A stretch of DNA of 64,000 nt from an uncultured Candidatus Saccharibacteria bacterium. GTDB taxonomy: Bacteria; Patescibacteriota; Minisyncoccia; Phycocordibacterales; CAIZLB01. Shown in pieces: positions 1 to 64,000 of this stretch (positions are counted from its first letter, which is position 1; the number at the start of each line of letters is the position of its first letter). The stretch is taken from assembly GCA_964550955.1 (NCBI GenBank), contig CAZKAF010000001.1, positions 393,920 through 457,919 of the forward strand, in the 5' to 3' direction. The position numbers and the translations under genes were made by a program. The notes under the pieces are model-generated. The model was not told where the DNA came from, did no database searches, and worked only from the letters and a program-made list of their open reading frames with translations.

Positions 1-2
1 CC

Positions 3-539
3 GAAGAAGCGGCAAAGGCGGCTATCAGCTCCCCTCTCATCGACATTTCAATACACGGCGCGAAAGGCGTGCTCTTCTCCATCGCCGCAGGCGACGATCT
101 CACCATGTGGGAAATCCAGGAGGCAGCCAAGATCATTACGGATTCCGTCGATCCGAACGCCAAGATCATCTTCGGCACGGTAAAGGACGAGAAGCTCAAG
201 AAGAACGAGATCAAGATCACGGTCATTGCCGCGAACTTCCCCGACTCCCCTGTCACGCGGCGGGCGTTCTCGCTTTCTCCTGAACCGGCGCGAGGCGAGA
301 TAGAAGCTCCGGAACCGAGGCGAGGCATCTTCAACTCATTCGGCGGCGGCAACTCCGCTCCTCAGCAGCAGGCGCCGCAGCAGAGCATCCAGCAGCCCGC
401 TCCCCAGCCGCCTCAGCAAGCGCAGCAAGCTCCGGCCGAGCCGAAAAGGCAGGAGCCTCCGACTCCCATCCAGACGACAGAAGACGATGACGAATGGGGC
501 GCAGTTCCGGCATTTCTCCGAAGGAACAAGCTAAAATAG
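3..539 (+). CDS. ftsZ: Cell division protein FtsZ, C-terminal part (5' end lies outside the window)
   Basis: Frame 3 reads from the window edge as EEAAKAAISSPLIDISIHGAKGVLFSIAAGDDLTMWEIQEAAKIITDSVDPNAKIIFGTV..KITVIAANF (FtsZ C-terminal GTPase-domain motifs). A Q/P-rich linker follows, then the conserved C-terminal peptide DDDEWGAVPAFLRRNK. Confidence 0.8.
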   Translation, partial: EEAAKAAISSPLIDISIHGAKGVLFSIAAGDDLTMWEIQEAAKIITDSVDPNAKIIFGTVKDEKLKKNEIKITVIAANFPDSPVTRRAFSLSPEPARGEIEAPEPRRGIFNSFGGGNSAPQQQAPQQSIQQPAPQPPQQAQQAPAEPKRQEPPTPIQTTEDDDEWGAVPAFLRRNKLK

Positions 540-557
540 TCACAATTCTCATGAAAA

Positions 558-590
558 AACCGCATCACGAAAAATGCGGTTTTTGCTTTG
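558..590 (+). terminator. Rho-independent terminator after ftsZ
   Basis: Hairpin ccgcat(560-565)/atgcgg(575-580) followed by a TTTT run at 581-584. Confidence 0.6.
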
Positions 591-622
591 GCATTTTAAT
601 CGAAGTGCAGTAAAATCTACGC

Positions 623-1618
623 ATGAATACAATTTACGATCTCATCATCATCGGCGGCGGCCCGGCAGGAGTCGGAGCCGGAGTATACGCCTCGCGAAAG
701 CAGCTCAGGACGCTTTTCCTTACGGTAGATTTTCACGGCCAAAGCTCGGTTTCGGAAGGCATTGAAAACTGGATAGGCACGGTCAAGATCAGCGGAGAAG
801 ACCTGTCAAAAAGCCTCGAGAATCACCTCAAGGCATATGCCGGCGAGTTCGTGGATATCAAGACCGGAGCATGGGTAAGCAACGTGGAAAGCGTCGGAAC
901 GCCGGAAGCGCCATTGTTCAGGATCAGCGTGAAGTCGGGATCAAGCGGCCAGCTCGGACAAGCCGCGAACGTGGACGAATCAGGCGCCATGCAGACCTTC
1001 GAAGCCAAGTCAGTCCTCGTCACGACGGGAAGCACCCGAAGAAGGCTGCCGGCTATCGGCGCGGACATCTACGAGCACAAGGGCGTAACGTACTGCGCCA
1101 CATGCGACGGGCCGATCTTTAGCGGACAAGACGTTGCGGTCATAGGCGGAGGAAATGCGGCTTTCGAAAGCGCGGCGCAGCTGGCGGCGTACTGCAAGTC
1201 CGTAACCATCGTCAACAGAAGGGACGTGTTCCGAGCCGACCCGGTGACCGTAGCCAAAGTTTCAGCAAAGGAAAACGTGAAGCTTCTCACGAACGTCGAG
1301 GTCGTCGAAGTCAAAGGCGCGAAGTTCGCAAACGCCCTTGCATACAAGGAAAATGGATCGGAAGAAATCAAGGAATTGCCGGTAACCGGCATCTTTGTCG
1401 AGATAGGATTGATTCCCAACACCTCTTTCCTGAAAGACGTCGTTGTTCTGGACGAGCACGGAAAAGTCATCGTCGATCCGAAGACGCAGCAGACAAGGAC
1501 TCCGGGCATTTGGGCCGCGGGAGACTGCACGGACGGCTTGTACCACCAAAACAACATCGCGGTCGGCGATGCGGTCAAGGCATTGGAAGATATTTACATA
1601 AATCTCGCGAAGCGATAA
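623..1618 (+). CDS. trxB: Thioredoxin-disulfide reductase-like FAD/NAD(P) oxidoreductase
   Basis: N-terminal DLIIIGGGPAGVGAGVY FAD-binding motif, redox-active CATCDG, second dinucleotide fold VAVIGGGNAAFESA, and C-terminal GIWAAGDC. Has an insertion relative to the canonical TrxR. Confidence 0.65.
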   Translation: MNTIYDLIIIGGGPAGVGAGVYASRKQLRTLFLTVDFHGQSSVSEGIENWIGTVKISGEDLSKSLENHLKAYAGEFVDIKTGAWVSNVESVGTPEAPLFRISVKSGSSGQLGQAANVDESGAMQTFEAKSVLVTTGSTRRRLPAIGADIYEHKGVTYCATCDGPIFSGQDVAVIGGGNAAFESAAQLAAYCKSVTIVNRRDVFRADPVTVAKVSAKENVKLLTNVEVVEVKGAKFANALAYKENGSEEIKELPVTGIFVEIGLIPNTSFLKDVVVLDEHGKVIVDPKTQQTRTPGIWAAGDCTDGLYHQNNIAVGDAVKALEDIYINLAKR

Positions 1619-1680
1619 AAAAGCAACAAGAAGCAGAGTTTTATGTTTTGCCCTTAGTACGGGCATGATATAGTGTAGGC

Positions 1681-2568
1681 ATGAACATAGACCAACTTCA
1701 ACGAATGAAAATCGGACAAGGCTTCATAGCCGCGCTCGACCAAAGCGGAGGCAGCACGCCGAAAGCTTTGGCCGCTTATGGCATTACCGAAAACAGCTAC
1801 GCCGGCGAAGCTGAGATGTACGACCTTGTGCACCAGATGCGCTCGCGCATCATCACGAGTCCGGCTTTTGACAGCAAATACATCTTAGGCACCATTCTCT
1901 TCAAGCAGACGATGCGAAGCCAGATAGACGGCCTCGATACCGGAGACTTCTTGTGGCAGAGAAAAGGCATAGTTCCTTTTCTTAAGATTGACGACGGGCT
2001 GGCCGAACAAGCGGACGGCGTGCAGCTCATGAAGCCGATGCCCGCGCTGGCAGAACTTCTCGATGAAGCGCGCAGCAAGAACATATTCGGCACGAAGATG
2101 CGATCGGTCATCAAGGAATGCGACAGGGATGGCATCGCCAAAGTAGTCGATCAGCAATTTGAAATAGCGCGACAGATTATCGCCGCCGGGCTCGTGCCCA
2201 TCGTTGAGCCGGAGGTGGATATCAACGCAGCAGACAAGGCAAAGATAGAAGAAGTCCTGCGCGACCTGCTGCTTGCGTCGCTCGACACGCTCAGCCCTGA
2301 TCAGCTCGTCATGCTGAAGCTCACGATTCCAAGCGAAGACGACTTCTACGCGCCCCTCATCAGCCATCCAAATGTCGTACGGGTTGTCGCTCTCTCCGGC
2401 GGATACAGCCGTGAAGAAGCGAACGAAAAGCTCGCGCGGAACCGCGGACTGATTGCGAGCTTCAGTCGCGCCCTCAGCGAAAACCTGAGCGCCAGCCAAA
2501 CCAGCGAAGAGTTTGACGCGAAGCTCCAAGAAACCGTAGAAGGAATCTACAGAGCGTCGATATCATAA
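1681..2568 (+). CDS. fda: Class I fructose-bisphosphate aldolase
   Basis: N-terminus [35 protein letters not shown] closely matches bacterial class I FBA (Staphylococcus FdaB type). An extended -10 TGATATAGT sits 6 nt upstream of the ATG. Confidence 0.8.
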
Positions 2569-2590
2569 GAAATCTCTGATTAGCGCAATG

Positions 2591-2630
2591 AAGCCCTGCT
2601 TCGTTTCGAGGCAGGGCTTTTGCATTTCTC
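2591..2630 (+). terminator. Hairpin terminator between fda and the convergent antiporter gene
   Basis: aagccctgc/gcagggctt 9-bp stem, then a T-run. Confidence 0.6.
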
Positions 2631-2674
2631 AGGCGCCCGGCAAAAGAGGAATACCTCGCCCTCCTTCTTTTACT

Positions 2675-4042
2675 CTACTCCGCCACCTCAAGCTTCCGCG
2701 CCACCCATTGGGTAAGCGGAGGCTGTATTACGAGCGTAAGAATGATTACCCACATGCCGACGGATATGACCATGTTCGCGACGCCGTCATTCCCTATGAC
2801 CGAAAGGCCGCTGTATGCGACTTGGATAAGCAGGACGGCCGGAATCACGCCAGTTTCCCGAACCCATGACATGAACAGCAGCTCCTTGACCGTGAACTTG
2901 CTCTTGCCGAACAGGAAGCCGAGCGACGCGAAAACTGAAATCGGCCTGATGACGAATATGAAAACAAGCCCTGCCAAGATTCCGAACAGCGCGTAGTCCA
3001 AAAGAACCTTGACGTTCACTAGGGCTCCGAGAACGATGAAGACGCTCGGCTTCGCTATGCCCTCGATAAGCTGATTAAAGAAGGTCTCGGTCTTGTGAAC
3101 CCTCTCATTCAGCACGACCAAAAGCCCCGCGATGAAGCTGGCCAGATATCCGCTTCCTTCAAACAGCACCGCGAACGCGTAGGCCATGATGGGAATGGCG
3201 ATAAAGAAGCCGATGTCCGCATGACATTCGGCGCGCATGAGCCTTTGCCTGACGAAGAACCGTATCGCGTAGAACCCCATGACGCCGACTGAGGCGCCGA
3301 TAAAGATTTCCTTAAGGAGAAAATTCATTGATTCAACGGACAGCAACGCGCTGAATCCGCTCGAAAGCGAAGTGAATTCCCCTCCCCTCGTCAGGAATGT
3401 TATGAAAGCTACGGTTACGAGCGTTCCGACCACGTCAGTAAGCGCGCTTTCTGAAACCACGATGTCCTTGATTCGGTCTTTCTTGAACTTCAGATCCTTA
3501 AGCACCGGAATAATCGCTGCCGGATCGGTTGAAGCGAGTATGGCGCCCAAAAGGAGCGCCACTGAGATGCTCATGCCGAAGCCCGTCGCGACGCCAAGCG
3601 AGAACAGGCCTTGCGCGAACAGGAAGGTCGAAATGCCGAGACCGACAAACGAAAGGAGCAATGTCGGCAATACGATCTTGCGGAAGCTCGTAAACGATAT
3701 TTCGAGGCCTCCGCCAAACAAGATGTACACGGCTGAAATGGTAACGATCATGTTCAGTATGACCGAATTCTCGACTAACGGCTGCAGCAAATTATTCATG
3801 CTTATGCCGATGAACAGCGCGACGAGAAATGACGGAAAGATGGTGCCCCTTGAAAGCGAATGAGAAATTGTCCCTAACAAGAACATTCCGCCTACGAGAA
3901 AGAGCGGAATGACGGATGACAGTTCGTGCGAATGAGGAAGCGTTTCCGAAAACTGCACGAACAGCGCGTTAAAGACGGCAAAGCAGCCCACGCTCATGAT
4001 GAGCAGGAACAGGGGCGAATGATGCTTCAATTTTAAAAACAT
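2675..4042 (-). CDS. Cation:proton antiporter (CPA1/NhaP-type Na+/H+ exchanger)
   Basis: 455-aa polytopic membrane protein with the ILASTDPAAIIPVLKDL...SESALTDVVG motif typical of Na+/H+ exchanger family proteins. Confidence 0.65.
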   Translation of the reverse strand: MFLKLKHHSPLFLLIMSVGCFAVFNALFVQFSETLPHSHELSSVIPLFLVGGMFLLGTISHSLSRGTIFPSFLVALFIGISMNNLLQPLVENSVILNMIVTISAVYILFGGGLEISFTSFRKIVLPTLLLSFVGLGISTFLFAQGLFSLGVATGFGMSISVALLLGAILASTDPAAIIPVLKDLKFKKDRIKDIVVSESALTDVVGTLVTVAFITFLTRGGEFTSLSSGFSALLSVESMNFLLKEIFIGASVGVMGFYAIRFFVRQRLMRAECHADIGFFIAIPIMAYAFAVLFEGSGYLASFIAGLLVVLNERVHKTETFFNQLIEGIAKPSVFIVLGALVNVKVLLDYALFGILAGLVFIFVIRPISVFASLGFLFGKSKFTVKELLFMSWVRETGVIPAVLLIQVAYSGLSVIGNDGVANMVISVGMWVIILTLVIQPPLTQWVARKLEVAE

Positions 4043-4270
4043 GGAGCTTGATTAGTCTTGATAATGCCTGGCTGCCATGTGACGAACGTATCAAGTATGA
4101 AATGGATTCCCGCTTCCGGATTCGCTCCATTTGAACATGCCGACATACGGCCATCACACGAAAAAGTCAAAAAACCACGGAGTGCGCGCGGCTTTGTACC
4201 TTACTGAAGGCTAATCTGCATTAGTCGCATTCAGTACCAAGTCGTGGAGGCGAAGTTTTTCGGCTTCTTG

Positions 4271-4343
4271 TGGGCGATACAGGACTCGAACCTGTGGCAT
4301 CAACAACGTCAATGTTGCGCTCTACCAACTGAGCTAATCGCCC
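4271..4343 (-). tRNA. tRNA-Val (anticodon GAC)
   Basis: Reverse complement folds as a 73-nt cloverleaf: acceptor GGGCGAT/ATCGCCC, D-arm GCTC-AGTTGGTA-GAGC, anticodon stem CAACA/TGTTG with loop TTGACGT, T-arm ACAGG-TTCGAGT-CCTGT, discriminator A. CCA is not encoded. Confidence 0.85.
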
Positions 4344-4570
4344 GCATTAATTGTTTCCTGAGCATCCGTCCATCCAGGAAAGAATGAACGATTTATTAAA
4401 TCTACCAGACTTTCGGCGCTTTATCAACAGCATTTGCACATGCTTGCCCATGTCCCCGCCCTGATGCGGCCCATGGCCCGGAACCCTTAATATGCGCAAT
4501 GAAATGGCGCATGACGCCATGGGCACGGCTTTGCCTTTTCTGAACAAAAGTGTTATATTGCTCCCTACAT

Positions 4571-4642
4571 GGCCCTATCGTCTATCGGTTAGGACGAAAG
4601 CTTTTCAAGCTTTAAAGCCGGGTTCGACTCCCGGTAGGGTCA
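4571..4642 (+). tRNA. tRNA-Glu (anticodon TTC)
   Basis: 72-nt cloverleaf: acceptor GGCCCTA/TAGGGTC, anticodon stem AAAGC/GCTTT with loop TTTTCAA, T-arm CCGGG-TTCGACT-CCCGG. An extended -10 TGTTATATT lies 11 nt upstream. Confidence 0.85.
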
Positions 4643-4652
4643 CAAAACCGAA

Positions 4653-4690
4653 ACAGCTTCGCATTTCTTTGCGGAGCTGTTTTGCGTTTC
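4653..4690 (+). terminator. Terminator hairpin downstream of tRNA-Glu
   Basis: 10-bp stem acagcttcgc/gcggagctgt (one G-U pair), then TTTGCGTTT. Confidence 0.55.
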
Positions 4691-5381
4691 TAGTGGAACT
4701 AAGCAAGCCAACTGCTTGGCTTGCGTCCGGGAGTCGAAAGGGTTCTCCGTTATTTTCAAGAAATGAGCAGAGCGAATTTTGAGAAAATCGGAAACCCGTA
4801 CTGGTCCTGTAAGGACCGACGAGCGGAAGGATCACAATTCGCAACAAAACGGTTTTCAAAGGCCTCAAATCCGATTGTTTTTCACATTTTCAACCATTCA
4901 ACAAAAAAAGAGGAAGAGCCCGAGACGACATTGCGTCCCGGGCTCAAAAGGAAGAAGAAAAGACCTACCACGATGTCACATTTCTTGGTTGCCCAAGAGG
5001 ACGGCCTGCCGAACATTTAAGTCCGGCAGGAATCACTCCACGTTACATGAGGATACGCCTCATGGCTGCAAAGCTATAATCATTGAGAGCTTCGGTCTCG
5101 GTCGAGAAGGTTTTCCTTCCACCGTAGTCAGCGGCTTCTGCCACCTTAGCTACAAATCTGCGTTTGGATACGCTCTCGTCGTTCGACAGCTTGCGCCGCC
5201 TCGGCTTTCGGTCAAAACGAACTTCCTAGCCATAAGAATACGCCTATTAATATTTTTTGCAACCTTCGTTCACAAACCACCCAATGAACGCCATGCTTTT
5301 GAAAGAAAATATCGCTCCCGCAATCATCCGTCAGGAACAAAAACGGCTTTGCCATGCGTATATTTTGATATAATAGATATT

Positions 5382-6167
5382 ATGCCAATCCTCACATACG
5401 AACAGTATGCAGCAATCAAGCACAGGACTCCCTATGCCCTATCGCTGAAATCAGGCCCGAATTTTCTGTATTACTTTGGCGAACAGCACTCGTTCAAACC
5501 CGCGGATATGCAATGGGTTGCACTCAAGGAGTTTTGGAATGAATTTCTCGAAAAAACAAAAGGTCAAAAAAGAATAGTATTTACAGAAGGCGGAATGCGT
5601 CCCGTTGAACAAAATAAGGGACAGGCAATCCTTAAGCACGGCGGCATGGGCTTGGTCACGCATCTTGCGCACCAGGAAAACATAAAAATGCACTCGCCGG
5701 AGCCCGATGAAGCACACGAACGATCAGAACTTGAAAAGAGTTTCTCGAGGGATGTTATCCAATATTACTATTTTGCCCGAGTCGTTTTGCAATGGGGAAG
5801 AAAAACTGACCCTAAGCCTGATTTTGTAAAATACATCACTCGGTATCTGCAGAGTGATGAAAAAAGAAGCGGCTGGATTGGATACGATTTCTCGCTTGAG
5901 GCAATGAAGGAAATCCATTCGGAACTATTCCAAATTCCTTTTGATGAGAACGATATTGATTTCTTCTATGATACCTCAAATCCTGTCGTAATTAAATCCG
6001 AAATCAACAAAGTTTCCGCCGCCTCAAGCATGATACGAGATGAATATATTGTAAGCGAGATACAGAAATACATGAACGAAGGATATTCCATCTTTGCAGA
6101 ATACGGATGCAGTCACGTGGTGATGCAGGAGCCCGTCTTGAGGGAATTATTTGAATCTGAGGCGTAG
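5382..6167 (+). CDS. Hypothetical protein (orphan, AT-rich gene)
   Basis: The ORF track extends to 4779, but the upstream part is low-complexity read-through. Likely start MPILTYEQYAAIKHRTPY is preceded by TTGATATAATAGATATT-ATG (-10 TATAAT). No recognisable domain. Markedly lower GC than its neighbours. Confidence 0.4.
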   Translation: MPILTYEQYAAIKHRTPYALSLKSGPNFLYYFGEQHSFKPADMQWVALKEFWNEFLEKTKGQKRIVFTEGGMRPVEQNKGQAILKHGGMGLVTHLAHQENIKMHSPEPDEAHERSELEKSFSRDVIQYYYFARVVLQWGRKTDPKPDFVKYITRYLQSDEKRSGWIGYDFSLEAMKEIHSELFQIPFDENDIDFFYDTSNPVVIKSEINKVSAASSMIRDEYIVSEIQKYMNEGYSIFAEYGCSHVVMQEPVLRELFESEA

Positions 6168-6984: not shown

Positions 6985-7013
6985 TTCACAAACCACCCCT
7001 AATCTGCTAGACT
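6985..7013 (+). promoter_or_regulatory. Sigma70-like promoter of nrnA (TTCACA-N17-TAGACT with upstream TG)
   Basis: TTCACA at 6985-6990, 17-nt spacer, TGC-TAGACT at 7005-7013, ATG 9 nt downstream. No Shine-Dalgarno. Confidence 0.5.
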
Positions 7014-9477: not shown

Positions 9478-9572
9478 AAAAGATTCGGCTGAAATTCATG
9501 TCGTCCGGCCAGGATTCGCCTTATGGCGCAGCCCTTATCTAAAGCCCCGTTTTCTGCTAGACTGTCTGAATC

Positions 9573-13619: not shown

Positions 13620-13730
13620 AAGTGCGTAGATAGTATCAAAAAAGCCCCAGGGCGTCAATCTCGGGCTCTGCAGCCTGAAAATAACGCTCTGGGGCCTCCG
13701 GGGGCACATGACGCCTGCAAATGAACGGCT

Positions 13731-14480: not shown

Positions 14481-14622
14481 GGGTCAATGTGTCTATTGGT
14501 TTGGTATTTGTTTGGTGCAAGCTTCCAGAAATGGCCGCTATGCGAGAACGGGTCCTTATGGTCCGTAAATAAAGTACTCCATTATGCAGTCTTGTCAATT
14601 TCTGGTAGCATATAGGCTATAT

Positions 14623-17578: not shown

Positions 17579-17606
17579 ATTATATAATATTATCCTATAA
17601 TGTCAA
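17579..17606 (-). promoter_or_regulatory. Strong minus-strand sigma70 consensus promoter (TTGACA-N16-TATAAT), about 225 nt upstream of the 16867-17358 gene
   Basis: Reverse complement reads TTGACA ttataggataatatta TATAAT. Overlaps the smc terminator hairpin cagcggaag/cttccgctg. Confidence 0.45.
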
Positions 17607-17692
17607 ATCAGCGGAAGGCTTCTTCCGCTGTCTCGAAACTGCGATTCCGCAAAAAATTCGAAGCGCAATTAAGAAGGGGCCGGAAAGGAGGC

Positions 17693-20068
17693 TTACTTGG
17701 CCACCGCTACCGCGTCATCGAAGGCGATGGAGAGCGTCTTCGAGTATCCTTCCCCTCCCATCGTCACGCCGTAGATGACGCCGGCGCGGGACATCGTCTC
17801 CCGATTATGAGTTATCAAAATAAGCTGCGAGTGCTTTGAAAGCGCCTCGATCATGTCGCCGTACTTTCGCGAGTTTGCCTCGTCGAGGGCAGCATCCGTC
17901 TCGTCCAAAATGACGAATGGCGGCGGATTGACCTGGGACATGGCAAAAAGGAGCGCGATGGACGTGAGCGCCCGCTCTCCGCCCGAAAGCATTGTCAGGC
18001 CCTTGATCCGCTTATGAGGCAATGAGACATGGATGTCAATTCCCTCTTCGGCCGGCGCGTCATCCGCAAGCTCTTCTTGAAGCGCCAGGGACAAGTCGCC
18101 TCCTTCGTCAAACTCGCCGGACCCGGCCTTTTTCCTCCGCCTTCGCTCTTCGCGAATCAATTTCAGCTCGGCCGTGCCGCCGCCGAACATGAGCCCGAAG
18201 AACTTATTGAATTCCTTGTTGATTTTTCCGATGCCCTCCTTGAACAGCCCGTCGAGCTTCTGATTGAGCTCGGCTATGAGATTCTTGAGGGATTCCGAAG
18301 AAGTTATGAGATCCTGCAATTCTCGCGCCAGGAACGCGTCTCGCTCCTCGGCTTCCTTGAACTCGCGCATGACGTCGTCGCCTCCCGCTCCGCCCATTTC
18401 CTCAAGGCGAATCTTGGTCTTCTCAATGGCCCTGCGCTTTTCAACCTGGACAGACCGGGGCTCTCTTTCAGGAGACGCGGAGGAAGAGTCCCCGGCGTCG
18501 TTTCCCGCGTCAGCCCGCTGATAGTCAACGGCATCGCGCCCGACAAGCATTCCCGCCTCATAGACCTCCCGCTTGAAATCCTCTTCCTCGACTCGCACGC
18601 GCTCTTCCTTGGCCTTGATCGTTTCCAAGTAACTGTGGAGCTCGTTTTGCCGAGACATTATGACCAGAACGGCCTTTTCGCTTTCAACATTTTTGTCTCG
18701 CTCTTTGTCAATATCAACCTTGATGCTTGAATATCGCTCAGACTGGGCAATCTCTTCCTCCGAATACACCTTCATCCTTTCTTCAAGAACCGCCATCTCT
18801 TCCGTGACTCTCCTGATTTCAGATTCCTCAGCCGCCGTATCGACGACATGAATCTGTTCGGCGTCCTTATGATGCGCGACGAAGCCGCCGATGCTTTCCT
18901 TGATCTCGCCGAGCATCTGCTTGACGTATTCGAGGCGATTCTCAATGCTTTCATTTCCATGCTCCCCCTCTCCGTTCAGGGCCTCGACGGCAACGGTCGC
19001 TTTCACGTCGATGTCGCGCTGTATCCGCTCGACGTCCCGCAGGTAAACCTGCTTCGTGCTGACGGCCGGCTCCGAATGTTCCTTGAGCTTCTTGTCGATT
19101 GCCCTCTTGAGGTACGAGACCTCTCCCTCCAGCCTGCCGAGCTCGCGCGTGCATGAATCTTTCTTGCTTCGAGTATCGCGCATCTCCTGCTCAAGCGACA
19201 GCAAGTCGGACATCTTCGAGCTCTGTCCCAGATTTGCCTTGGCCTCGTCGAGAATCTTCTTGTGATGGGCCAAATCCTTATGAAGCGAATCGAGCTCGGC
19301 CTGCGGAGCTTTCTTTTCCTCGGCAAGCATCGTCTTCTCGGCCTTCAGATATGCGTCTTCTTTTGCAAAATATGCCTTATACAGCTCTATGAGCTCCTGT
19401 CTCAAGGCGACGGACTTCTCGACTTTCTCAACTTGCTTGCGCAAGAATTTTATATGCGGGGCAATTTCGCGACGGAGCGATTCAAGCTCCTTGACATGGT
19501 TCGCGGTCTTGTCGAGCTTTTTCTCGCTCTCTTCCTTTTTATATTGATAGACCTTGAGGCCGAGCGCGTCCTCTATCATTTCCCGCCTGTCCTTGGGCTG
19601 GGCGGAAAGAAGCCGATCAGCTTCGCCTTGCGAAATGATGTGGTGGCCGGACGAGCCGATGTTCGCATACGCCAAAAGCTCGACGACATCCTTGAGCCGC
19701 ACGAGCGTTCCGTTTATGAAATACTCGTTGACGCTGTCCCGGTGCACCACGCGCTCGATGGATATCTCGTCGAAATCCATGTTGAACATCCTGTTCGTAT
19801 TATCAAAGACAACTTTCACCGAAGCCCTGTTCGCGCGGGCGCTGTCCTTCCCGCCGTTGAAAATCAGGTCTTCGCCTTTCTTGCCTCGCATGGACTTGAG
19901 CGACTGCTCGCCGAGCACGAACCGGAAAGACTCCGCGACGTTCGACTTGCCCGAACCGTTCGGACCGACGATGGACGTGATGGGAGAAGAGAACGTCAGG
20001 GAGCTCTTTTTCGCAAACGACTTGAAGCCGTTTATTTCCAGGGATTTGAGGCGGGACACGAATGACAT
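17693..20068 (-). CDS. smc: SMC-like chromosome segregation ATPase (short, 791 aa)
   Basis: Walker A GPNGSGKSN, long coiled-coil, ABC signature LSGGERALTSIALLFAM, Walker B FVILDETDAALDEAN. About two-thirds the length of canonical SMC. Extended -10 TGATAGAAT 7 nt before the ATG. Confidence 0.75.
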   Translation of the reverse strand: MSFVSRLKSLEINGFKSFAKKSSLTFSSPITSIVGPNGSGKSNVAESFRFVLGEQSLKSMRGKKGEDLIFNGGKDSARANRASVKVVFDNTNRMFNMDFDEISIERVVHRDSVNEYFINGTLVRLKDVVELLAYANIGSSGHHIISQGEADRLLSAQPKDRREMIEDALGLKVYQYKKEESEKKLDKTANHVKELESLRREIAPHIKFLRKQVEKVEKSVALRQELIELYKAYFAKEDAYLKAEKTMLAEEKKAPQAELDSLHKDLAHHKKILDEAKANLGQSSKMSDLLSLEQEMRDTRSKKDSCTRELGRLEGEVSYLKRAIDKKLKEHSEPAVSTKQVYLRDVERIQRDIDVKATVAVEALNGEGEHGNESIENRLEYVKQMLGEIKESIGGFVAHHKDAEQIHVVDTAAEESEIRRVTEEMAVLEERMKVYSEEEIAQSERYSSIKVDIDKERDKNVESEKAVLVIMSRQNELHSYLETIKAKEERVRVEEEDFKREVYEAGMLVGRDAVDYQRADAGNDAGDSSSASPEREPRSVQVEKRRAIEKTKIRLEEMGGAGGDDVMREFKEAEERDAFLARELQDLITSSESLKNLIAELNQKLDGLFKEGIGKINKEFNKFFGLMFGGGTAELKLIREERRRRKKAGSGEFDEGGDLSLALQEELADDAPAEEGIDIHVSLPHKRIKGLTMLSGGERALTSIALLFAMSQVNPPPFVILDETDAALDEANSRKYGDMIEALSKHSQLILITHNRETMSRAGVIYGVTMGGEGYSKTLSIAFDDAVAVAK

Positions 20069-20262
20069 ACGTGGTCACATTCTATCAGATTTTCATCTTT
20101 TATTCACGGAACAATTCACATGATTGCAGGAGCTTCAGGCTCTTGCAAAAGCGCCTCAAGAGCGGCGAATCGCTGCTTTCCGCGCAATGACCTCCGCCCC
20201 AAGAAAGCGGCTTCCTGAATCAGGAAGCCGTTTTTTACTTGGTTCCTTCTCAGCACGCAACA

Positions 20263-21030: not shown

Positions 21031-21951
21031 TTACGCTACCACATTTTGCTTTTTTAGCAATATCTGAACCGACTTGGTCACGATGGGCAGAATGTCGTTA
21101 TAAAAATTCAAGGTGAGGAGGTCTTTCGCGTTAAACCACTTGGCGTCGTCCAGCCCGCCGCTCTCTCCCAAAGTAAGCGGCACGTACTCTCCTTTTGCCA
21201 GGAAATACGTCACCTGCTTTCGCATCTTGCCCTCTTCGGGATGCGACGCGATATACTCGTTATGCGCCAGCTCCTCCTCGATGGAAACGTCGATGCCCAT
21301 TTCTTCCTTGACCTTCTGAGCGGTGCCGGCTGAGACGTCAAGCGTCTCGTCCAGCTTGCCCTTTGAAAGCGTCCAATGGCCGAACACGTCATGCACGAGC
21401 GCGAAATATATTTCGCCGTCATGGAATGCGTAGACGACCGCGCCGCCGAGCTTCTTGATCGGCATTTCTTCATATGGTACCTCCTTCTTCTCGGCCTTCG
21501 CCTTTCGGGTCGACACCTCTTCCTTGCCCGGCTCGCCCATTTCCTTGTAAACCGCGCCGAGCACGCCGTTCACGAACTTGCCCGATGTCTCGCCGCCGAA
21601 AGACTTGGCAAGCTCGATAGCCTCGTTGATGGCGACTTTTGCCGGAACCTCCTTCCTGTCGCCGAAGATGAGCTCATAAAGGCCGATGCGAAGCACGTTC
21701 CTGTCCACGATGGCAATCTTGGGAATCGGCCATTCCGGAGCGGCCTTCTCGATGATGAGGTCGATGTCCTGCCTTTTTTTCAGGACCCCGTCAGCCAGGT
21801 TTTTTATAAAAGAAAAATCGCCCATGCCAGGAGCGAACTCTTCCGTGTTTTTGTGGAGGATGTCAGAAATAGCAGTCTCAGGGAGATTTCGAAAATCCCA
21901 TTCAAAGAGTGATTGCAGAGCTATTGATCGTGAAAGGTGCCTGTTGGCCAT
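21031..21951 (-). CDS. nusB: Transcription antitermination factor NusB fused to a C-terminal NUDIX-like hydrolase domain
   Basis: N-terminal about 140 aa match NusB (MANRHLSRSIALQSLFEWDF..., AIVDRNVLRIGLYEL). After a K/E-rich linker, the C-terminal about 140 aa show a NUDIX fold with a degenerate box GKLDETLDVSAGTAQKVKEEMGI. Confidence 0.65.
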   Translation of the reverse strand: MANRHLSRSIALQSLFEWDFRNLPETAISDILHKNTEEFAPGMGDFSFIKNLADGVLKKRQDIDLIIEKAAPEWPIPKIAIVDRNVLRIGLYELIFGDRKEVPAKVAINEAIELAKSFGGETSGKFVNGVLGAVYKEMGEPGKEEVSTRKAKAEKKEVPYEEMPIKKLGGAVVYAFHDGEIYFALVHDVFGHWTLSKGKLDETLDVSAGTAQKVKEEMGIDVSIEEELAHNEYIASHPEEGKMRKQVTYFLAKGEYVPLTLGESGGLDDAKWFNAKDLLTLNFYNDILPIVTKSVQILLKKQNVVA

Positions 21952-22291: not shown

Positions 22292-22399
22292 AGGGCTTCA
22301 GTATACTCATTTTTTGAATATTGGCAACATGGCGAAAGGGTTCCGGATGATCTTCCGTGCCGGCTTCCGGCCCTGCGGCCCTGCAAGCCCCGGACTCCG

Positions 22400-22765
22400 T
22401 TATTTCTTTTCGGCAAGCTGATGAATGAGGACCGCATTGCCTTCAGAATCCTTTATGGAAGCCATCTGGCAGGTCGGATAGCTTTGAGGCTCGATCAGGA
22501 ATTCCACGCTTGCCGACTTGAGCTTGTCTATGACCTCTTGGAAGTCGGCCACCTCGAGCGCCATCGAGGGACCCTGAGTAGTGGGCTCCCAGCCGGGCAT
22601 CTTTCCAAGACTGAGGGCGCTGTCGCCTATCAAGAATTCCGTCCAGCTTTCGCTCGCCTCGTCAAACTCCGGATTCAGGGCCAACCCGAACATCTCCTGA
22701 TAAAACTTCCGGGCACGCGCCATGTCTGTCACGGGGTATGCCACGAAACCGATTGACTTGATCAT
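22400..22765 (-). CDS. Glyoxalase/VOC-family protein
   Basis: MIKSIGFVAYPVTDMARARKFYQEMFGL is a typical VOC beta-alpha-beta-beta-beta module start. Start chosen at MIKSIG rather than the longer ORF-track start at 22924. Confidence 0.5.
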   Translation of the reverse strand: MIKSIGFVAYPVTDMARARKFYQEMFGLALNPEFDEASESWTEFLIGDSALSLGKMPGWEPTTQGPSMALEVADFQEVIDKLKSASVEFLIEPQSYPTCQMASIKDSEGNAVLIHQLAEKK

Positions 22766-22877
22766 GTTATTTTCATTAAGTTGTAATGAAGAAATCATAG
22801 CATATGGCATCCTTGCCATACAGGATGCCGGCTTAAGTAAACATTCATGTTGGTCTTTTTTTTGCAAAGATGAATCC

Positions 22878-22911
22878 ATGAAAACAGCGCAGAGTACGGG
22901 ACTCTGCGCTG
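22878..22911 (-). terminator. Terminator of purK
   Basis: 10-bp stem cagcgcagag/ctctgcgctg, with a T-run on the minus strand. Confidence 0.65.
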
Positions 22912-22947
22912 CAATTTCCAACACGGCTTCGGCCGGGCTTAAGGGGC

Positions 22948-24123: not shown

Positions 24124-24402
24124 GAGCTGATTCCTTTCCTGGTTGGTTTGTATTCTGTTGTCTGAGTTGAACTGACCTGACCGAAATCGTACCCCGCCGA
24201 GGCTCGATTTGCAAGATTGCTAATGATAGCTTATTTCAGCTCCATCTTCAAAATGTCGACGGCATCCTCCAAAGTCGAGTATTCGCAGACTTTTATGTAC
24301 GAATTTCCGGAAACCATCGCCGACAACCTCTTTCCTTCCGACCTTCTGTACAGGCACAATATTCTTTTGCCCATCGCCTGCGCCTGGCCGAGCATGCCGT
24401 GA

Positions 24403-25206: not shown

Positions 25207-25328
25207 ATAGAACATATTAGCATTTTTTAAAAATTACTACATGAATTTATGCTCAACTCCTCAAGCTGGCGACCCGCCGAATCTCATGCGAAGAGCCTCC
25301 GAAGCGGTTTTCTTTCCAGACCTGCCGC

Positions 25329-27339: not shown

Positions 27340-27372
27340 GATGCAATCAATATTATCATTATTTGCGCCTGA

Positions 27373-28149: not shown

Positions 28150-28224
28150 ATGCGCACATTGTACAACATATTAAATTCGCGCAAGGCTTTATAATTTTTA
28201 ATTTAAATTTTATACTGTATTCAT

Positions 28225-31761: not shown

Positions 31762-31911
31762 TCTCAGGAAAAATTGGGGTTTTATGGTGTTTTTTCACAG
31801 AAAATGCAGGTCCTCGTCAGGCAATATAGCAAAAATGCTATATTGCCTGAGAACAGAATCAGCCTTTTTCTCATGGTGCGACGCGTCATTTTTTCTGCTA
31901 TCATAGACTTC

Positions 31912-35999: not shown

Positions 36000-36120
36000 A
36001 GTGTTATCATTATATACCGATAAGTATATTTAGTCAAGTACTGATATTGATTCCTTTCATTTCTTGTGTTATGGAAAATTCAGCTTATTTACCATACTAT
36101 AACTTATTTATATCATAGTA

Positions 36121-39395: not shown

Positions 39396-39423
39396 GACAT
39401 GAGTATACCAGACCGTGCATAGA

Positions 39424-39451
39424 TTGACAATCTACATGAGTATGATATAAT
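39424..39451 (+). promoter_or_regulatory. Consensus promoter TTGACA-N16-TGATATAAT driving the CARDB protein gene
   Basis: TTGACA at 39424-39429, TATAAT at 39446-39451, ATG at 39461. Confidence 0.55.
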
Positions 39452-44094: not shown

Positions 44095-44224
44095 TTGATT
44101 TGCAAAAATATGCGCTGATATATGTATTAAATTACCTGATTATTATACCAAATTTTGGGCTCCTAGGCGGTATTGACAGCAAGCCCACATATTGTGCCCT
44201 TTAGCGTCAGGGCCCTATTTCTAG

Positions 44225-46766: not shown

Positions 46767-46869
46767 AGAACTACCATAGCACGAAAACGGCCTTTTAAAA
46801 ATCGATTGCGCCCGGCCTCTCCATTGAAAAGCAAGCTATTCCAGACGCCGTTCCCGCATGCATGTGTAA

Positions 46870-46898: not shown

Positions 46899-47048
46899 AA
46901 AACAGATATTTGGTCCTTTGAAATGCCTCGCTTGACTGCATCCTTTAGGGAAACTTGAGCTCGCTCGAGCCTTGAAAGATGCAGTCAACATATTGCCTGC
47001 CTCATCAGCTCAACCAGAACACCAACACCCAGCAGAGGAATACAGAAC

Positions 47049-49703: not shown

Positions 49704-49723
49704 AGTGTTAGTATAATACCAAA

Positions 49724-51658: not shown

Positions 51659-51679
51659 ATGCCTATAAGTATACCACTT

Positions 51680-54113: not shown

Positions 54114-54142
54114 GGGCTACATAGTAGCAGAAAAAGCAACGC

Positions 54143-54176
54143 AAAACCCCTTGACCGCTTGAGGCCGAGGGGTTTT
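54143..54176 (-). terminator. Terminator downstream of surface protein B
   Basis: aaaacccct/aggggtttt stem with flanking A and T runs. Confidence 0.6.
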
Positions 54177-55504: not shown

Positions 55505-55609
55505 GATAGGCGTACTATACGCCTATCAGCAGGCAAATTCAAGCATTTGCAAGCCGCGAGGATTCCGCAGACTTTGACTGCCGAGGACTTCAGACAAGAG
55601 TCAGAAAGG

Positions 55610-60257: not shown

Positions 60258-60776
60258 TCATTGTTTCTTCGAGAAAATTTCCACGGTCTTCCTGATCTCA
60301 TCCTGAATGCCGTCGATGCATTCGTAGCTCATGGCCTCTTCGGCATTTACCCATGCGAAGTCCGTAAACGAGCCCTCTTCGAGCTTCACCTCGCCTGTCT
60401 CGTATTTGGCCGCGAACTTCACCAGAATGACAGGCGTCTCGTCGGGCCGTATGAATGCCACGCTGTTTATGTATGCGAGCGCCGGCTGGATTTCAATGCC
60501 CGCCTCTTCGAGCGTTTCCCGTCTCAGCAAATCCTCAACCGCATCCTGATAGTCGAGGACGTCGCCATTGATTCGAGTCGGACGCGCCACGTCCATGTCT
60601 TTCCACTCAAGCTTTCCGCCAGGCACCGCGTACCTTCCCGGATGCACTTTCTCGCGCATGTCCCTTTTCAGGATCAGGCACCGTCCGTCCGATTCCCTGT
60701 AGACCACCACATTCGCCACGAAATAAAAGAGCTTGTCTTGCTTGGCATTATCAATGCTTATTTTTGTTGCTGGCAT
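60258..60776 (-). CDS. NUDIX hydrolase
   Basis: Canonical Nudix box GGKLEWKD...EDLLRRETLEEAGIEI. Confidence 0.85.
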   Translation of the reverse strand: MPATKISIDNAKQDKLFYFVANVVVYRESDGRCLILKRDMREKVHPGRYAVPGGKLEWKDMDVARPTRINGDVLDYQDAVEDLLRRETLEEAGIEIQPALAYINSVAFIRPDETPVILVKFAAKYETGEVKLEEGSFTDFAWVNAEEAMSYECIDGIQDEIRKTVEIFSKKQ

Positions 60777-60872
60777 GTTTTGCAGTTAGATTGCTATGCA
60801 GGAAGTATAGCACTGCGCCGAGCCGCTTCAAGCGCGATTTTGCCGTCCTATTCCGCCTGGCATTCCTTCCTC

Positions 60873-62039
60873 TTACATGACCCTGTCGACAATGGTCTCC
60901 CGCCGTTTCTGAATCATTTTCAGGAACGGATGCTCTATGTATTTATACGTGACCGCCGAGACGAGGACCGTGACGATGCCGGAAAGAAGTATCAGGCCCC
61001 AGAACTGCTGAGGGGACGTGTTCGCGATCGGCAAAAGCAAATTCGCGATGTTAAGCACGGCGTACAGGATGATGCCATGGATAAGATAGATGCTGTAACT
61101 GAGCGTTCCGAGAAATTTCGCGGCTCGCGTCTTCAGAAGGCCGAACAGGTCGTTTCCGTAAATGAAGCATAGGAAGATTCCGAGCGAGACGCAATATTGA
61201 AGGAACGAATACGGCTTGTACTGTATCGAGTACACGAGGAAAAGCCCGAGTACGGGCAAGATTCCCGCCCAAAAGCGGCTGGCAAGGCTCCATTTCGGAA
61301 TCTTATGAACAATGTGCGCGGCCAGGATGCCGAACATGAAAATCATCCAGTAGCCCCGATCGGCCGACGTGAACGCGAATGCGAGTATCGGTATGAGCAT
61401 GATGCGAGCCTCGACGCTTTTCAGCGCAAGGGCCGATACGGGAAGGAACAGATAGAAGATCCATTCGAAATGAAGGGTCCAGTGGATGCCGGCGTTAATC
61501 GGAATGATCGTGTCGCCGTTGACCGTCGTCGTGGTATGAAGGCCGAGCGTCAGCCAAGAAAGCACATCCCGCACGAGCGTTCCGACTGAGGCAAAAGAAA
61601 ATCTCGTTTCGATTAATGCAGCGATGGTCACGATGGCTGCCGAAACGAGGTACATGGGAGCGAGTCTCAGGAATCTGCTGCGATACAGGCCCATGATGTC
61701 CACTTCTCCTTTTTTGGCCATCGCCTTGGACCAATAGAGGAAGCTGGTGATGATGAAAAAGAGAATGACCGACTCGCCTCCCAAATGCCTGTAGAAGCGT
61801 ATGTCGGTAATCTGCCAGATGCCGGTCGAGAAGTACGCGAAGTTCGTGACGGCATGCTGAAAGAACACGCCGAAGGCCAGGAATCCCCGAAGCCCGTCCA
61901 GGCTTTCATAGCGGCCGCCCGCCTCCGAATCCGCGATTTTCTTATAGAAAGGAATGTACCGGACGAGAACTGACGCGAAAACCGTAATGATGAGCATCAC
62001 GACGAAGAATGGCAAAATGCTGGTATGACTGAATTGCAT
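60873..62039 (-). CDS. Acyltransferase family 3 (OafA/YrhL-like) membrane O-acyltransferase
   Basis: LDGLRGFLAFGVFFQHAV motif and a 10-TM topology. Start at MQFSHT. Confidence 0.75.
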   Translation of the reverse strand: MQFSHTSILPFFVVMLIITVFASVLVRYIPFYKKIADSEAGGRYESLDGLRGFLAFGVFFQHAVTNFAYFSTGIWQITDIRFYRHLGGESVILFFIITSFLYWSKAMAKKGEVDIMGLYRSRFLRLAPMYLVSAAIVTIAALIETRFSFASVGTLVRDVLSWLTLGLHTTTTVNGDTIIPINAGIHWTLHFEWIFYLFLPVSALALKSVEARIMLIPILAFAFTSADRGYWMIFMFGILAAHIVHKIPKWSLASRFWAGILPVLGLFLVYSIQYKPYSFLQYCVSLGIFLCFIYGNDLFGLLKTRAAKFLGTLSYSIYLIHGIILYAVLNIANLLLPIANTSPQQFWGLILLSGIVTVLVSAVTYKYIEHPFLKMIQKRRETIVDRVM

Positions 62040-62238
62040 GGATAGATATCGGTCTGATTTTAGTAAAGGGAATTTCCGAGTCCAATTTCCAGACTCCGCG
62101 AATCCGTCAATCATTCCATTGTAGCACGCCATGCCCGGCGATTTATGAATTTTTTATGATATCTTCCGCGCCCCCGCCAATTATTTGCCGTCGTCGGTTG
62201 CTTTCTTTGCCCCCTGTTCAGCTCACCCCCGGCGCGCC

Positions 62239-62634
62239 TTAGCCAATCAGGCATACCGCATTCAGGCAGTATCTCTTTCCCGTTTCCGTCGGTCCGTCCT
62301 CGAACATGTGGCCTAGATGGGATCCGCACTTGGTGCAGACCGTTTCGGTGCGAGTCATGCCATGCACCGTATCGGTCACCTCCCTGACGGAGCCGTCGAT
62401 AGCCTGGTCGAAGCTCGGCCAGCCCGTGCCCGAATCGAACTTCGCGTCTTCCTTGAAAAGAGGATTGCCGCATGCCGCGCATTTGTAAACGCCGTCAGCG
62501 GCAGGGCTTAATTTTCCGGTAAACGGAGCTTCGGTTCCCTTTTGCCGAAGAACCCTGTATTGCTCGGGAGTGAGCCTTGTCTTCCACTCTTCTTCCGTCT
62601 TCGGCACGTCTGCGGGCAAGTCGTTTTGCGTCAT
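62239..62634 (-). CDS. msrB: Peptide methionine sulfoxide reductase MsrB
   Basis: Two CxxC pairs (CAACGNPLF and CTKCGSHLGHMF) and GWPSF; the SelR/MsrB fold. Confidence 0.9.
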   Translation of the reverse strand: MTQNDLPADVPKTEEEWKTRLTPEQYRVLRQKGTEAPFTGKLSPAADGVYKCAACGNPLFKEDAKFDSGTGWPSFDQAIDGSVREVTDTVHGMTRTETVCTKCGSHLGHMFEDGPTETGKRYCLNAVCLIG

Positions 62635-62682
62635 ATGCTTTTGCTTACATTAAATTTAGTAAATTTTGACGAGAAGCCGGAA

Positions 62683-63234
62683 TCAGCTCGATTTCAGCAA
62701 TTCGGCGAACGCATGCTGAATCTTCTCAAGCTTCGGATTGATGACGACCTGGCAATACCTGTTTCCGGGATTGTTCGCGAGATAGTCATGATGATAATTC
62801 TCCGCTTCGTAAAATTCCGCAAGAGGAACAACTTCCGTCACGACAGGGTCGCCCTCCGAATTTGAATCGTCAATTTCCTTTATCATCTCTTCGGCTTCCG
62901 CCTTCTGATTCTCATTCGCGTAAAAGATGACCGAGCGATACTGCGTCCCGACATCGGCTCCTTGCCTGTTCGGCGTCGTCGGATCATGGCTTGCGAAAAA
63001 TACGGTCAGCAGCGTCCTGTATGAAACTGACGCCGGATCATATTCGACGGAAATGACTTCAGCGTGACCGGTCGTTCCGGCAGACACCTGCTCATAGGTC
63101 GGATTCGCGACAGCGCCTCCCGCATAGCCGGGCTTCGCGGCTGACACGCCCTTAAGCATCTTGAATACCGCCTCGGTGCACCAGAAGCATCCTCCGCCAA
63201 AAACCGCCTTTTCTGTTTTTTTCGTATCAGTCAT
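62683..63234 (-). CDS. msrA: Peptide methionine sulfoxide reductase MsrA
   Basis: Active site GGGCFWCTEAVF. Confidence 0.9.
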   Translation of the reverse strand: MTDTKKTEKAVFGGGCFWCTEAVFKMLKGVSAAKPGYAGGAVANPTYEQVSAGTTGHAEVISVEYDPASVSYRTLLTVFFASHDPTTPNRQGADVGTQYRSVIFYANENQKAEAEEMIKEIDDSNSEGDPVVTEVVPLAEFYEAENYHHDYLANNPGNRYCQVVINPKLEKIQHAFAELLKSS

Positions 63235-63256
63235 GCTGCTTGCGTCGAGGCTAATT

Positions 63257-63847
63257 CTAATTCAGCGCGACGCAATTCTGATATGTCATCACGCCGGACT
63301 GCTCGATCATCGCGCCCTCTCCTTTTGACCAGAACTTGAACGACGCGTCGGAATCAGAGTGAAAGGCGCCTGAGGCTGACATCGCGGGATTTAACGCGAA
63401 GGATTTGCCCGTGTCCAAAGTCACGGTCACGGTCGATACGGTATTGGAGGTCGCCTCGCGCGAAGCGCCGCCTGAATTCAAGGGCACGGGTATCGAAGTG
63501 TTCGCGTATGTCTCGACGAAGCTCTTGCCTCCATCGCACATGTATTTAAAAGACATCACTTCCACGACATGCCCTTCCCTTGTCGTAGTCGAATAATTCA
63601 GCAGCGCGGCATCGAGGTTCCCCCGATTCGAATCAGGAAAACCGTCCCGTCCTGCATCTGCATCATTGCCGTCCAGGGGATGTCCGACCCCGCATCTGCC
63701 GTCGCGTTCGCAGCCATGCGGCCTCAGTCCGGCATTCGGATCATATTTTTTCGATCCGAGAGCGTATCCGACAAAGAATACCGCCACGAAGAGGACTACG
63801 GCCAACGTCTGCGAATACCAAGTAACCTTTTTGAATTCAATAGCCAT
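63257..63847 (-). CDS. Membrane-anchored secreted protein, MliC-like (tentative)
   Basis: N-terminal anchor, with FKYMCDGG...SASGAF...FWSKGEGAM...C resembling the MliC lysozyme-inhibitor fold. Memory-based call. Confidence 0.4.
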   Translation of the reverse strand: MAIEFKKVTWYSQTLAVVLFVAVFFVGYALGSKKYDPNAGLRPHGCERDGRCGVGHPLDGNDADAGRDGFPDSNRGNLDAALLNYSTTTREGHVVEVMSFKYMCDGGKSFVETYANTSIPVPLNSGGASREATSNTVSTVTVTLDTGKSFALNPAMSASGAFHSDSDASFKFWSKGEGAMIEQSGVMTYQNCVALN

Positions 63848-63871
63848 GTGAATATTTATGATTGCTAATGA

Positions 63872-64000
63872 CTATATTTTACCACAAGCGGAAGAATCCC
63901 AAAGGCCGTTCGAATGATATTTCGCATACGCCTCGGCCTGCTTGAAGCTGGCCTGATACGCATACGGCTTGTCATGCGTGTACTCATGCCCGTAGCCTTC
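63872..64000 (-). CDS. 3' end of a CDS continuing beyond the window
   Basis: Minus-strand frame reads ...EGYGHEYTHDKPYAYQASFKQAEAYAKYHSNGLWDSSACGKI-stop. Product unknown. Confidence 0.3.
   Translation of the reverse strand, partial: EGYGHEYTHDKPYAYQASFKQAEAYAKYHSNGLWDSSACGKI

Follow-up and report, generated by a model that had tools for sequence, protein, structure and literature searches.

In the 64-kb stretch of DNA analysed here (the window), promoters of the sigma-70 type with an extended -10 element (TGnTAnnnT) abut the ATG start codons of many genes, and we consider it likely that these genes give rise to leaderless or near-leaderless mRNAs that are translated without Shine-Dalgarno (SD) pairing. 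The evidence comprises the positions of the motif, its promoter hallmarks, the absence of SD sequences, the validation of start codons, and the conservation of the layout across relatives; from these we infer where transcription starts and how translation begins. A previous reading of the window, made from its letters alone (the sequence-only reading), had proposed leaderless or short-leader genes, and every sequence-level test that we ran backs this proposal.

RNA polymerase normally initiates about 7 nt past the -10 element. The predicted housekeeping promoter combines TGnTAnnnT with an AT- or T-rich stretch at -17 to -21 and a weak -35, and its -10 ends 6-10 nt before the ATG, so that transcripts should begin at the AUG or 1-4 nt before it. 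Spacers of 6-7 nt would place the 5' end at the A of the AUG, and spacers of 8-10 nt would place it 1-4 nt upstream. The 5'-terminal AUG would then be recognised directly with initiator tRNA, with no SD pairing.

Start-proximal -10 hexamers and start codons

All window statistics cover 64 kb of the genome, with a G+C content of 52-53%. The gene set consists of 54 complete genes and was curated after Pfam and NCBIfam searches of the remaining open reading frames (ORFs). Independent automatic gene calls with Pfam labels came from Logan assemblies of the runs SRR16797981 and SRR16797977, which carry the same DNA and add none beyond the window. An Rfam scan identified two tRNAs and no other family in the window. 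The best matches of ThrS have 53-66% identity and stem mostly from metagenome-assembled genomes labelled Paceibacterota, Komeilibacteria, Parcubacteria or Saccharibacteria, and some matches of similar identity bear labels that are generic or lie outside the candidate phyla radiation (CPR). A metagenome scan with ValS gave matches of at most 67% identity, 0.1-μm groundwater fractions among them. Judged by these closest housekeeping homologues, the window can be assigned to a Patescibacteria (CPR)-type bacterium. A 16S rRNA gene was found neither in the window (Rfam) nor in the loci then fetched (regular expression for the conserved 3' region).

We defined the -10 hexamer as TANNNT and the spacer as the number of nucleotides between its end and the start codon. 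With refined starts, 24 of the 54 genes (44%) have a hexamer at spacer 6-10 and 27 (50%) at spacer 5-12; 16 of these 27 hexamers carry the TGn extension. The sequence-only reading had described an extended -10 as the sole signal of most genes. The layout does recur, but 'most' holds approximately only for genes that plausibly open a transcription unit: by hand count, about 55% of the genes that are divergent from their upstream neighbour, or at least 50 nt away from it, carry a proximal hexamer. Likewise, the hexamer is present at these starts but is extended at just those 16.

The association with start codons is strong. When all ATGs were compared irrespective of assigned starts, a hexamer at spacer 6-10 preceded 19 of 49 annotated ATG starts (39%) and 82 of 2348 other ATGs (3.5%; odds ratio 17.5, Fisher p 9e-15). 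A scan of the distances between -10 and start codon, as the earlier reading had suggested, revealed that 27 of the 97 TANNNT matches up to 64 nt upstream of starts are concentrated at just five positions, the spacers 6-10 (binomial p 4e-9). With provisional starts, spacers 6-10 held 21 matches, compared with roughly one at each other position. The motif itself helped to guide some of the start refinements, such as those at 5382 and 49703, but the main statistics hold with mechanical starts: 19 of 51 starts set as the first ATG of a long ORF show the pattern. The spacer histograms of the window have no peak at 20-30 nt, where an archaeal-type TATA box, about 26 nt upstream, would appear.

SD-like motifs at proper spacing precede only 2 of the 54 genes, in agreement with the claimed lack of SD sequences at most genes. 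These are purK, with AGGAAAGGA at 24132..24140 on the minus strand, 8 nt before ATG 24123, and a 250-aa ORF on the plus strand, with GAGGA at 47035..47039, 9 nt before ATG 47049. The SD-like site of purK had been noted before, as had the leadered gyrB, whose consensus extended -10 TGGTATAAT (44142..44150, minus strand) stands 47 nt before ATG 44094, close to the 45-nt leader quoted; gyrB is a leadered exception that also lacks an SD. Four tightly coupled genes, with gaps of -13 to +10 nt to their neighbour, have neither hexamer nor SD (0/4). Termination-reinitiation is the probable route for tightly spaced genes (PrsW, HSP20, EVE and the second ABC gene, with gaps of -13 to +25 nt). Five genes have an extended -10 at 27-49 nt upstream: gyrB, YkuD, NUDIX, the ORF at 63847, and a glyoxalase. 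The upstream regions of the leadered genes contain 38% A and 16% G, and the first codons are A-rich in all genes, with AAA as the second codon in 14 of 54. Such A-rich, G-poor upstream regions and A-rich first codons fit unstructured, SD-independent initiation, and leaders of this kind, rich in A, poor in G and unstructured, probably serve gyrB, YkuD, NUDIX and the other leadered genes. The glyoxalase gene lies in ORF 22400-22924, for which an assignment as yceD was rejected; it reads as a glyoxalase/VOC-like protein with start 22765, judged by eye without a profile search.

We validated promoter-proximal starts by aligning full-length NCBIfam models to them. Model position 3 of NF003784 aligned with residue 2 of Fda, position 2 of TIGR00002 with residue 3 of RpsP, position 5 of TIGR01031 with residue 5 of RpmF, position 1 of TIGR01292 with residue 5 of TrxB, and position 1 of the respective NCBIfam models with residue 6 of Smc and residue 12 of ThrS. 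The predicted starts of these six genes are confirmed by the N-termini of profiles or orthologues. In valS and dnaE, a stop codon lies just upstream and there is no other start codon in at least the first 30 codons. ThrS in 26 CPR loci starts 8-15 residues before the editing-domain motif (I/L)RHSLAHLL, mostly with one possible start, which matches ATG 31912. Because ThrS of the window (31912-33744) and of CPR relatives begins about 10 residues ahead of this motif, the N-terminal TGS domain of E. coli and Bacillus ThrS presumably is absent from them.

Several starts in the ORF track were indeed too long, as had been suspected. The start of rpsP moved from 13709 to 13619, that of thrS from 31774/31804 to 31912, that of the listed 462-aa ORF from 4779 to 5382, that of Band7 from 26321 to 26114, and that of DUF805 from 49805 to 49703. 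One automatic call errs the other way, with the gene caller's start of fda at 1705 being too short and corrected to 1681. We also observed that in the acyltransferase-3 ORF (60873-62153, minus strand) TGCTACAAT falls inside the 'coding' sequence after the first ATG at 62132 and that the Pfam domain does not begin until residue 76. Translation probably starts at 62039 or 61997, on a leadered transcript, which would make this ORF another mis-called start.

Promoter hallmarks, related genomes and alternative explanations

We aligned 26 start-proximal sites on the hexamer and inspected the columns that had not been used in their selection. T at -15 is present in 19 and G at -14 in 13 of the 26 sites, positions -17 to -21 are AT-rich, and T, T and G at -35, -34 and -33 occur in 13, 17 and 11 sites, at the canonical 17-bp spacing. 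Because these unselected columns have promoter signatures, the start-proximal hexamers are sigma-70-type promoters of the extended -10 class with a weak -35. In a consensus scan of the first 20 kb, we counted 22 promoter-like sites versus 11.8 expected from shuffled sequence. The gene for tRNA-Glu has the promoter TTGCCT-17-TGtTATATT at 4531..4559 on the plus strand, which stops 11 nt short of the 5' end of the mature tRNA at 4571; since a tRNA needs no ribosome, the same geometry at this gene points to a promoter and not to a ribosome-binding signal. In addition, each gene of the divergent pairs rnhB/dnaE (75 bp apart) and sortase/CARDB (65 bp apart) has its own element.

The same mechanical test, using the first ATG of long ORFs, was applied to loci fetched from relatives. 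In 43 CPR-labelled loci with 489 long ORFs, TANNNT at 6-10 nt preceded 35% of starts versus 7.2% of internal ATGs, and SD-like sites preceded 9% versus 7.3%. The 80 metagenome loci around valS homologues (344 long ORFs) gave 44% versus 6.9% for TANNNT (p 3e-72) and 4% versus 6.5% for SD-like sites. In contrast, 22 non-CPR loci from Chloroflexi, Clostridia and others (253 long ORFs) had TANNNT at 7% versus 6.7% and SD-like sites at 35% versus 6%. The CPR sets show a sharp peak at spacer 6, and the hexamers of the CPR loci are associated with TGn (25% versus 6.8%, p 1e-13) and with a -35 TTG (18% versus 6%, p 7e-8). Among the CPR loci there is a weak negative correlation between SD use and proximal promoters (rho -0.35, p 0.04).

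The metagenome scan yielded no ValS relative above 67% identity, and we compared promoter positions instead of nucleotide alignments. Most of about 30 CPR orthologues of valS, at 45-63% identity, have a promoter 6-10 nt ahead of their ATG, for example caaaaaccccttcTTTTTGCTACTATacacctcATG, and many thrS orthologues likewise keep the promoter position. As two independent CPR sets and the valS and thrS orthologues share the layout, the architecture is a property of the lineage and not peculiar to the window. As a separate observation, many CPR valS orthologues share, within the 45 nt upstream, the pattern ..(T)TCAAAAA-N6-9-T(4-6)G(C/T)TAnnAT-6/7 nt-ATG, whose CAAAAA is the reverse complement of TTTTTG. 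This pattern could be a conserved -35 with a T-tract, or a valS-specific conserved hairpin or operator.

Some observations count against leaderless transcription or qualify its support. About half of the start-proximal sites have spacers of 9-10 nt, which exceed the 6-8 nt typical of leaderless Actinobacteria, so many transcripts probably have leaders of 2-4 nt and not zero. The start codon is ATG in 53 of the 54 genes and at all 27 promoter-proximal starts, a strong preference that speaks for leaderless starts but is partly circular because ATG was favoured when starts were refined. Better extended -10 elements lie 45-57 nt upstream of three promoter-proximal genes, Band7, a 143-aa ORF (48463) and gyrB. 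The base at -1 is a pyrimidine at 24 of 26 promoter-proximal starts and never G; RNA polymerase prefers to start at Y-1/R+1, but the pyrimidine is equally common at starts without a nearby -10 (24/28), and so it is compatible with the model but not specific evidence for a transcription start site (TSS). Finally, the hexamer at 6-10 nt also precedes 22% of the tightly coupled internal genes of CPR relatives, and some of these cases probably stem from stop codons that happen to form TA..T.

Across all 54 genes, those without a nearby promoter included, the base preceding the ATG is C or T in 48 cases and never G. In CPR relatives, G at -1 occurs at 3-7% of starts versus 32% of internal ATGs, and non-CPR controls show a weaker depletion (16-17%).

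An alternative that we regard as unlikely is that the proximal promoters are real but secondary, with dominant mRNAs that are leadered, SD-independent, and made from upstream promoters or by read-through, leaderless forms being minor or conditional. It could account for the better upstream elements at Band7, the 143-aa ORF and gyrB, and for hyp475, DUF805 and DUF817, which lie 20-110 nt past a co-directional gene that lacks an obvious terminator; the number of terminator-like hairpins shows no enrichment over shuffles (28 found versus 26.8 expected). However, most proximal sites are the best or only promoter-like element of their intergenic region, their position is kept at valS and thrS across distant orthologues, and read-through cannot reach divergently arranged genes.

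It is less likely still that the TA-rich hexamer is no promoter at all and acts at the mRNA level, as a non-SD ribosome-binding signal or translational enhancer on leadered transcripts, similar to that of Bacteroidetes (GeneMarkS-2 group B). The absence of SD sequences, the A-rich and G-poor upstream regions, the 22% of internal genes with a hexamer in CPR relatives, and the -1 pyrimidine shared with genes that lack a nearby hexamer would all be expected under this explanation. It does not predict that hexamers co-occur with TG at -15/-14 and a -35 TTG at 17 bp in the window and in relatives, that the tRNA-Glu gene has the same element at the same distance, or that each divergent gene has an element of its own, and the four coupled genes of the window lack the hexamer. 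In relatives, the frequency at internal genes (22%) is lower than at divergent genes (42%), with p 0.016 for internal genes versus divergent and widely spaced co-directional genes together. The lower frequency at internal genes and the promoter hallmarks argue against membership in group B.

It is hardly credible that AT-rich intergenic DNA and biased start choice produced the pattern: intergenic DNA is more AT-rich than coding DNA and the motif was known when some starts were refined, but the positional peak arises inside the same upstream regions (p 4e-9), persists with purely mechanical starts, and is absent from identically treated non-CPR controls, and starts were validated independently by profiles and orthologues.

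Individual sites and the T-tract block

On the plus strand, the -10 TAAAAT of trxB (611..616) ends 6 nt before ATG 623 and has a -35 TTGGCA at 588, 17 bp upstream. The extended -10 TGATATAGT of fda (1666..1674) stands 6 nt before ATG 1681, and TGATATAAT (5366..5374) stands 7 nt before ATG 5382 within the ORF listed as 4779-6167. For rnr, TGGTAGCAT at 14603..14611 lies 11 nt before ATG 14623, and there is an alternative TAAAGT 8 nt before ATG 14584.

On the minus strand, rpsP has the extended -10 TGATACTAT at 13630..13638, 10 nt before ATG 13619, with a -35 TTGACG at 13658. Extended -10 elements also precede smc (TGATAGAAT, 20079..20087, 10 nt before ATG 20068), a dienelactone-hydrolase-like gene (TGCTAATAT, 25214..25222, 7 nt before ATG 25206), DUF817 (TGATAATAT, 27350..27358, 10 nt before ATG 27339), a methyltransferase gene (TGCTATGGT, 46773..46781, 6 nt before ATG 46766), and the gene with ATG 51658 (TGGTATACT, 51668..51676, spacer 9). 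DUF805 has TGGTATTATACT at 49713..49721, 6-9 nt before ATG 49703, in the 20-nt gap after the EVE gene. Simple -10 hexamers are present at rpmF (TATACT, 22300..22305, 8 nt before ATG 22291), at the gene for a PKD-domain surface protein (TATAAT, 36009..36014, 9 nt before ATG 35999), and at the gene with ATG 55504 (TATAGT, 55514..55519, spacer 9).

Of the divergent genes, rnhB has TACAAT at 28158-28163 on the minus strand and dnaE has TATACT at 28211-28216 on the plus strand, each 8 nt before the start (ATG 28149 and ATG 28225). The sortase gene has TGGTATACT at 39402-39410 on the minus strand, 6 nt before ATG 39395, and CARDB has TGATATAAT at 39443-39451 on the plus strand, 9 nt before ATG 39461. 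The spacings previously given for fda (6), nrnA (9), sortase (6) and rpmF (8) agree with the sequence; those for smc and dnaE, quoted as 7 and 10, are 10 and 8. Midway between sortase and CARDB, a perfect 15-bp palindrome, TAGATTGACAATCTA (39420-39434), was read directly and holds the overlapping -35 boxes TTGTCA and TTGACA. It could be a shared operator or simply two face-to-face -35 boxes.

Four promoters have a related T-tract block. The 10-mer TTTTCTGCTA is found at valS, where T-tract and extended -10 read TTTTCTGCTAGACT (9550..9563, plus strand, 9 nt before ATG 9573; the extended -10 proper is TGCTAGACT, 9555-9563, spacer 9), at thrS (TTTTCTGCTATCAT, 31891..31904, plus strand, 7 nt before ATG 31912), and at pif1 (TTTTCTGCTACTAT, 54121..54134, minus strand, 7 nt before ATG 54113). 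The promoter of nrnA (TGCTAGACT, 7005..7013, plus strand, 9 nt before ATG 7023) has the near copy aaTCTGCTA, one base off the 8-mer TTCTGCTA. The longer block described for four unrelated genes is thus identical at three of them and differs by one base at nrnA, and the use of TTCTGCTA as a general label for the promoters of the window does not hold, as it fits only 3-6 of them. The 8-mer occurs three times in the window, at 9552 (plus), 31893 (plus) and 54125 (minus).

We read TTTTCTGCTA as a recurrent variant of the T-tract and TGn part of the putative housekeeping promoter, present in 3-4 of about 27 promoters, and not as a separate kind of element. A distinct operator or an alternative-sigma promoter class that co-regulates valS, thrS, nrnA and pif1 seems rather unlikely to us. 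It would explain why an identical 10-mer stands at three genes with a near copy at a fourth, and why all four window copies of TCTGCTA are located in promoters, at most 40 nt upstream of a start codon; by a hand calculation from independent columns, about 0.03 copies would be expected among 26 promoters, and so the columns are correlated. But the count of the 8-mer is not significant by itself (chance mean 1.38, at least 3 in 13 of 100 shuffles), the block coincides exactly with positions -21 to -11 of an extended -10 that is ordinary in other respects, many unrelated genes of other CPR loci have similar strings of T-tract, TGC or TGG and TAnnnT, the T-run of pif1 doubles as the U-tract of an upstream hairpin, and there is no likeness past the block.

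This terminator-like hairpin (ACCCCT...AGGGGTTTT; ACCCCTcggcctcaagcggtcaAGGGGTTTT; 54129-54175, minus strand) directly abuts the pif1 promoter. Its T-run runs on into the T-tract of the promoter, giving a terminator-promoter overlap in a compact genome.

Further features were noted outside the start-proximal promoters. The approximately 700 nt that follow the tRNA-Glu gene (4690-5380) contain no convincing ORF, and the first 200 residues of the listed 462-aa ORF, which begins with TTG, resemble a non-coding translation. On the minus strand, this region has a strong terminator-like hairpin at 4945-4916, with 12 bp including 9 GC pairs, followed by TTCCTCTTTT. Rfam gave no match at E<=1 for 4690-5380 and nothing across 4000-5500. 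The region could be a novel RNA gene or a decayed gene. The sole perfect TTGACA-16-TATAAT of the first 20 kb is located at 17606..17579 on the minus strand and precedes about 215 nt without a plausible ORF; the region 17606-17359 (minus) leads to a 163-aa gene with ATG 17358. Between 17300 and 17700 there was no Rfam match at E<=5 and the fold was no better than that of shuffles (z -0.7), and the region 17606-17359 may represent either a long leader or some new type of small RNA. ORF 17600-17839 was dropped as a leaderless gene because it is junk-like. In a single 306-aa ORF at 21031-21951 (minus), an N-terminal NusB domain (residues 7-136) is joined to a NUDIX domain at the C-terminus (190-284).

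Known systems and biological meaning

The closest known parallel is group C of GeneMarkS-2, leaderless-rich genomes of Actinobacteria such as Mycobacterium tuberculosis and of Deinococcus-Thermus such as D. deserti (PMC6028130). In group C, 25-60% of the transcripts are leaderless, a TANNNT Pribnow box stands a few nucleotides upstream of the first-gene starts in operons, the -35 is weak, and gene callers misplace starts (PMC6028130). The likeness extends to these features, but the remaining genes of group C carry an SD, whereas SD use in the window and the CPR loci is at background. The spacers found here reach 9-10 nt, longer than the 6-8 nt of group C; many hexamers carry the TGn extension (16/27); and the main text of the survey does not name the host phylum, Patescibacteria (PMC6028130). 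The window hence has the positional feature of group C and lacks the SD use of that group's remaining genes.

Bacteroidetes such as Flavobacterium johnsoniae (group B) resemble the window in that SD use is nearly absent and upstream regions are A-rich and unstructured (PMC6847099). They differ in having leadered mRNAs with an upstream motif at all genes, whereas the motif described here has promoter hallmarks and is sited where the TSS would coincide with the AUG. Haloarchaea and mitochondria also combine leaderless first genes with SD-independent initiation of the others, with little or no use of SD and anti-SD, but the window has bacterial sigma-70 -10 and -35 elements and no peak at about -26. 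With its TGnTAnnnT, degenerate -35 and AT-rich spacer, the promoter itself has the canonical extended -10 sigma-70 architecture and is unusual only in where it stands relative to the start codon and in its T-tract/TGC subclass. Overall, the layout resembles group C combined with the SD-less regime of Bacteroidetes, or that of haloarchaea and mitochondria. It is a known type of architecture, in a phylum for which we found no description of it, with an SD-less twist added.

Full-text searches, with incomplete coverage, found no literature that links CPR or Patescibacteria with leaderless mRNAs, and a TM7x transcriptome preprint contains no TSS, promoter or untranslated-region analysis. Tsurumaki et al. 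(2022) detected the anti-SD CCTCCT in only 48% of Parcubacteria and reported that bS21 is often absent and bS1 shortened, and leaderless genes are unmentioned there (PMC9297842). Annotation pipelines may already model the pattern implicitly.

The gene-level architecture ties this published oddity of CPR ribosomes, the frequent loss of anti-SD and bS21 and the shortened bS1, to something concrete. Starts were misplaced by gene callers or ORF tracks in at least 6 of 54 genes, including rpsP, thrS and fda. Database proteomes of CPR bacteria probably hold many false N-terminal extensions and truncations, which a promoter-aware start model would fix. The proposed architecture also predicts that 5'-end maps of cultured Patescibacteria should show AUG-proximal starts, and it provides a design rule for expression constructs, in which TGnTAnnnT would be placed 6-9 nt before the ATG and a ribosome-binding site would be unneeded.

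We lean slightly towards the broader view that Parcubacteria/Paceibacteria-like Patescibacteria, perhaps most of the phylum, largely gave up SD pairing. About half of their genes, and most transcription units, would be leaderless or have a 1-4-nt leader from start-abutting promoters, and the rest would be translated via SD-independent reinitiation or unstructured A-rich leaders. If true, this view would give the reported losses of anti-SD, bS21 and bS1 domains in CPR ribosomes their counterpart on the side of the genes, and CPR would be a bacterial phylum whose initiation regime resembles that of archaea or mitochondria.

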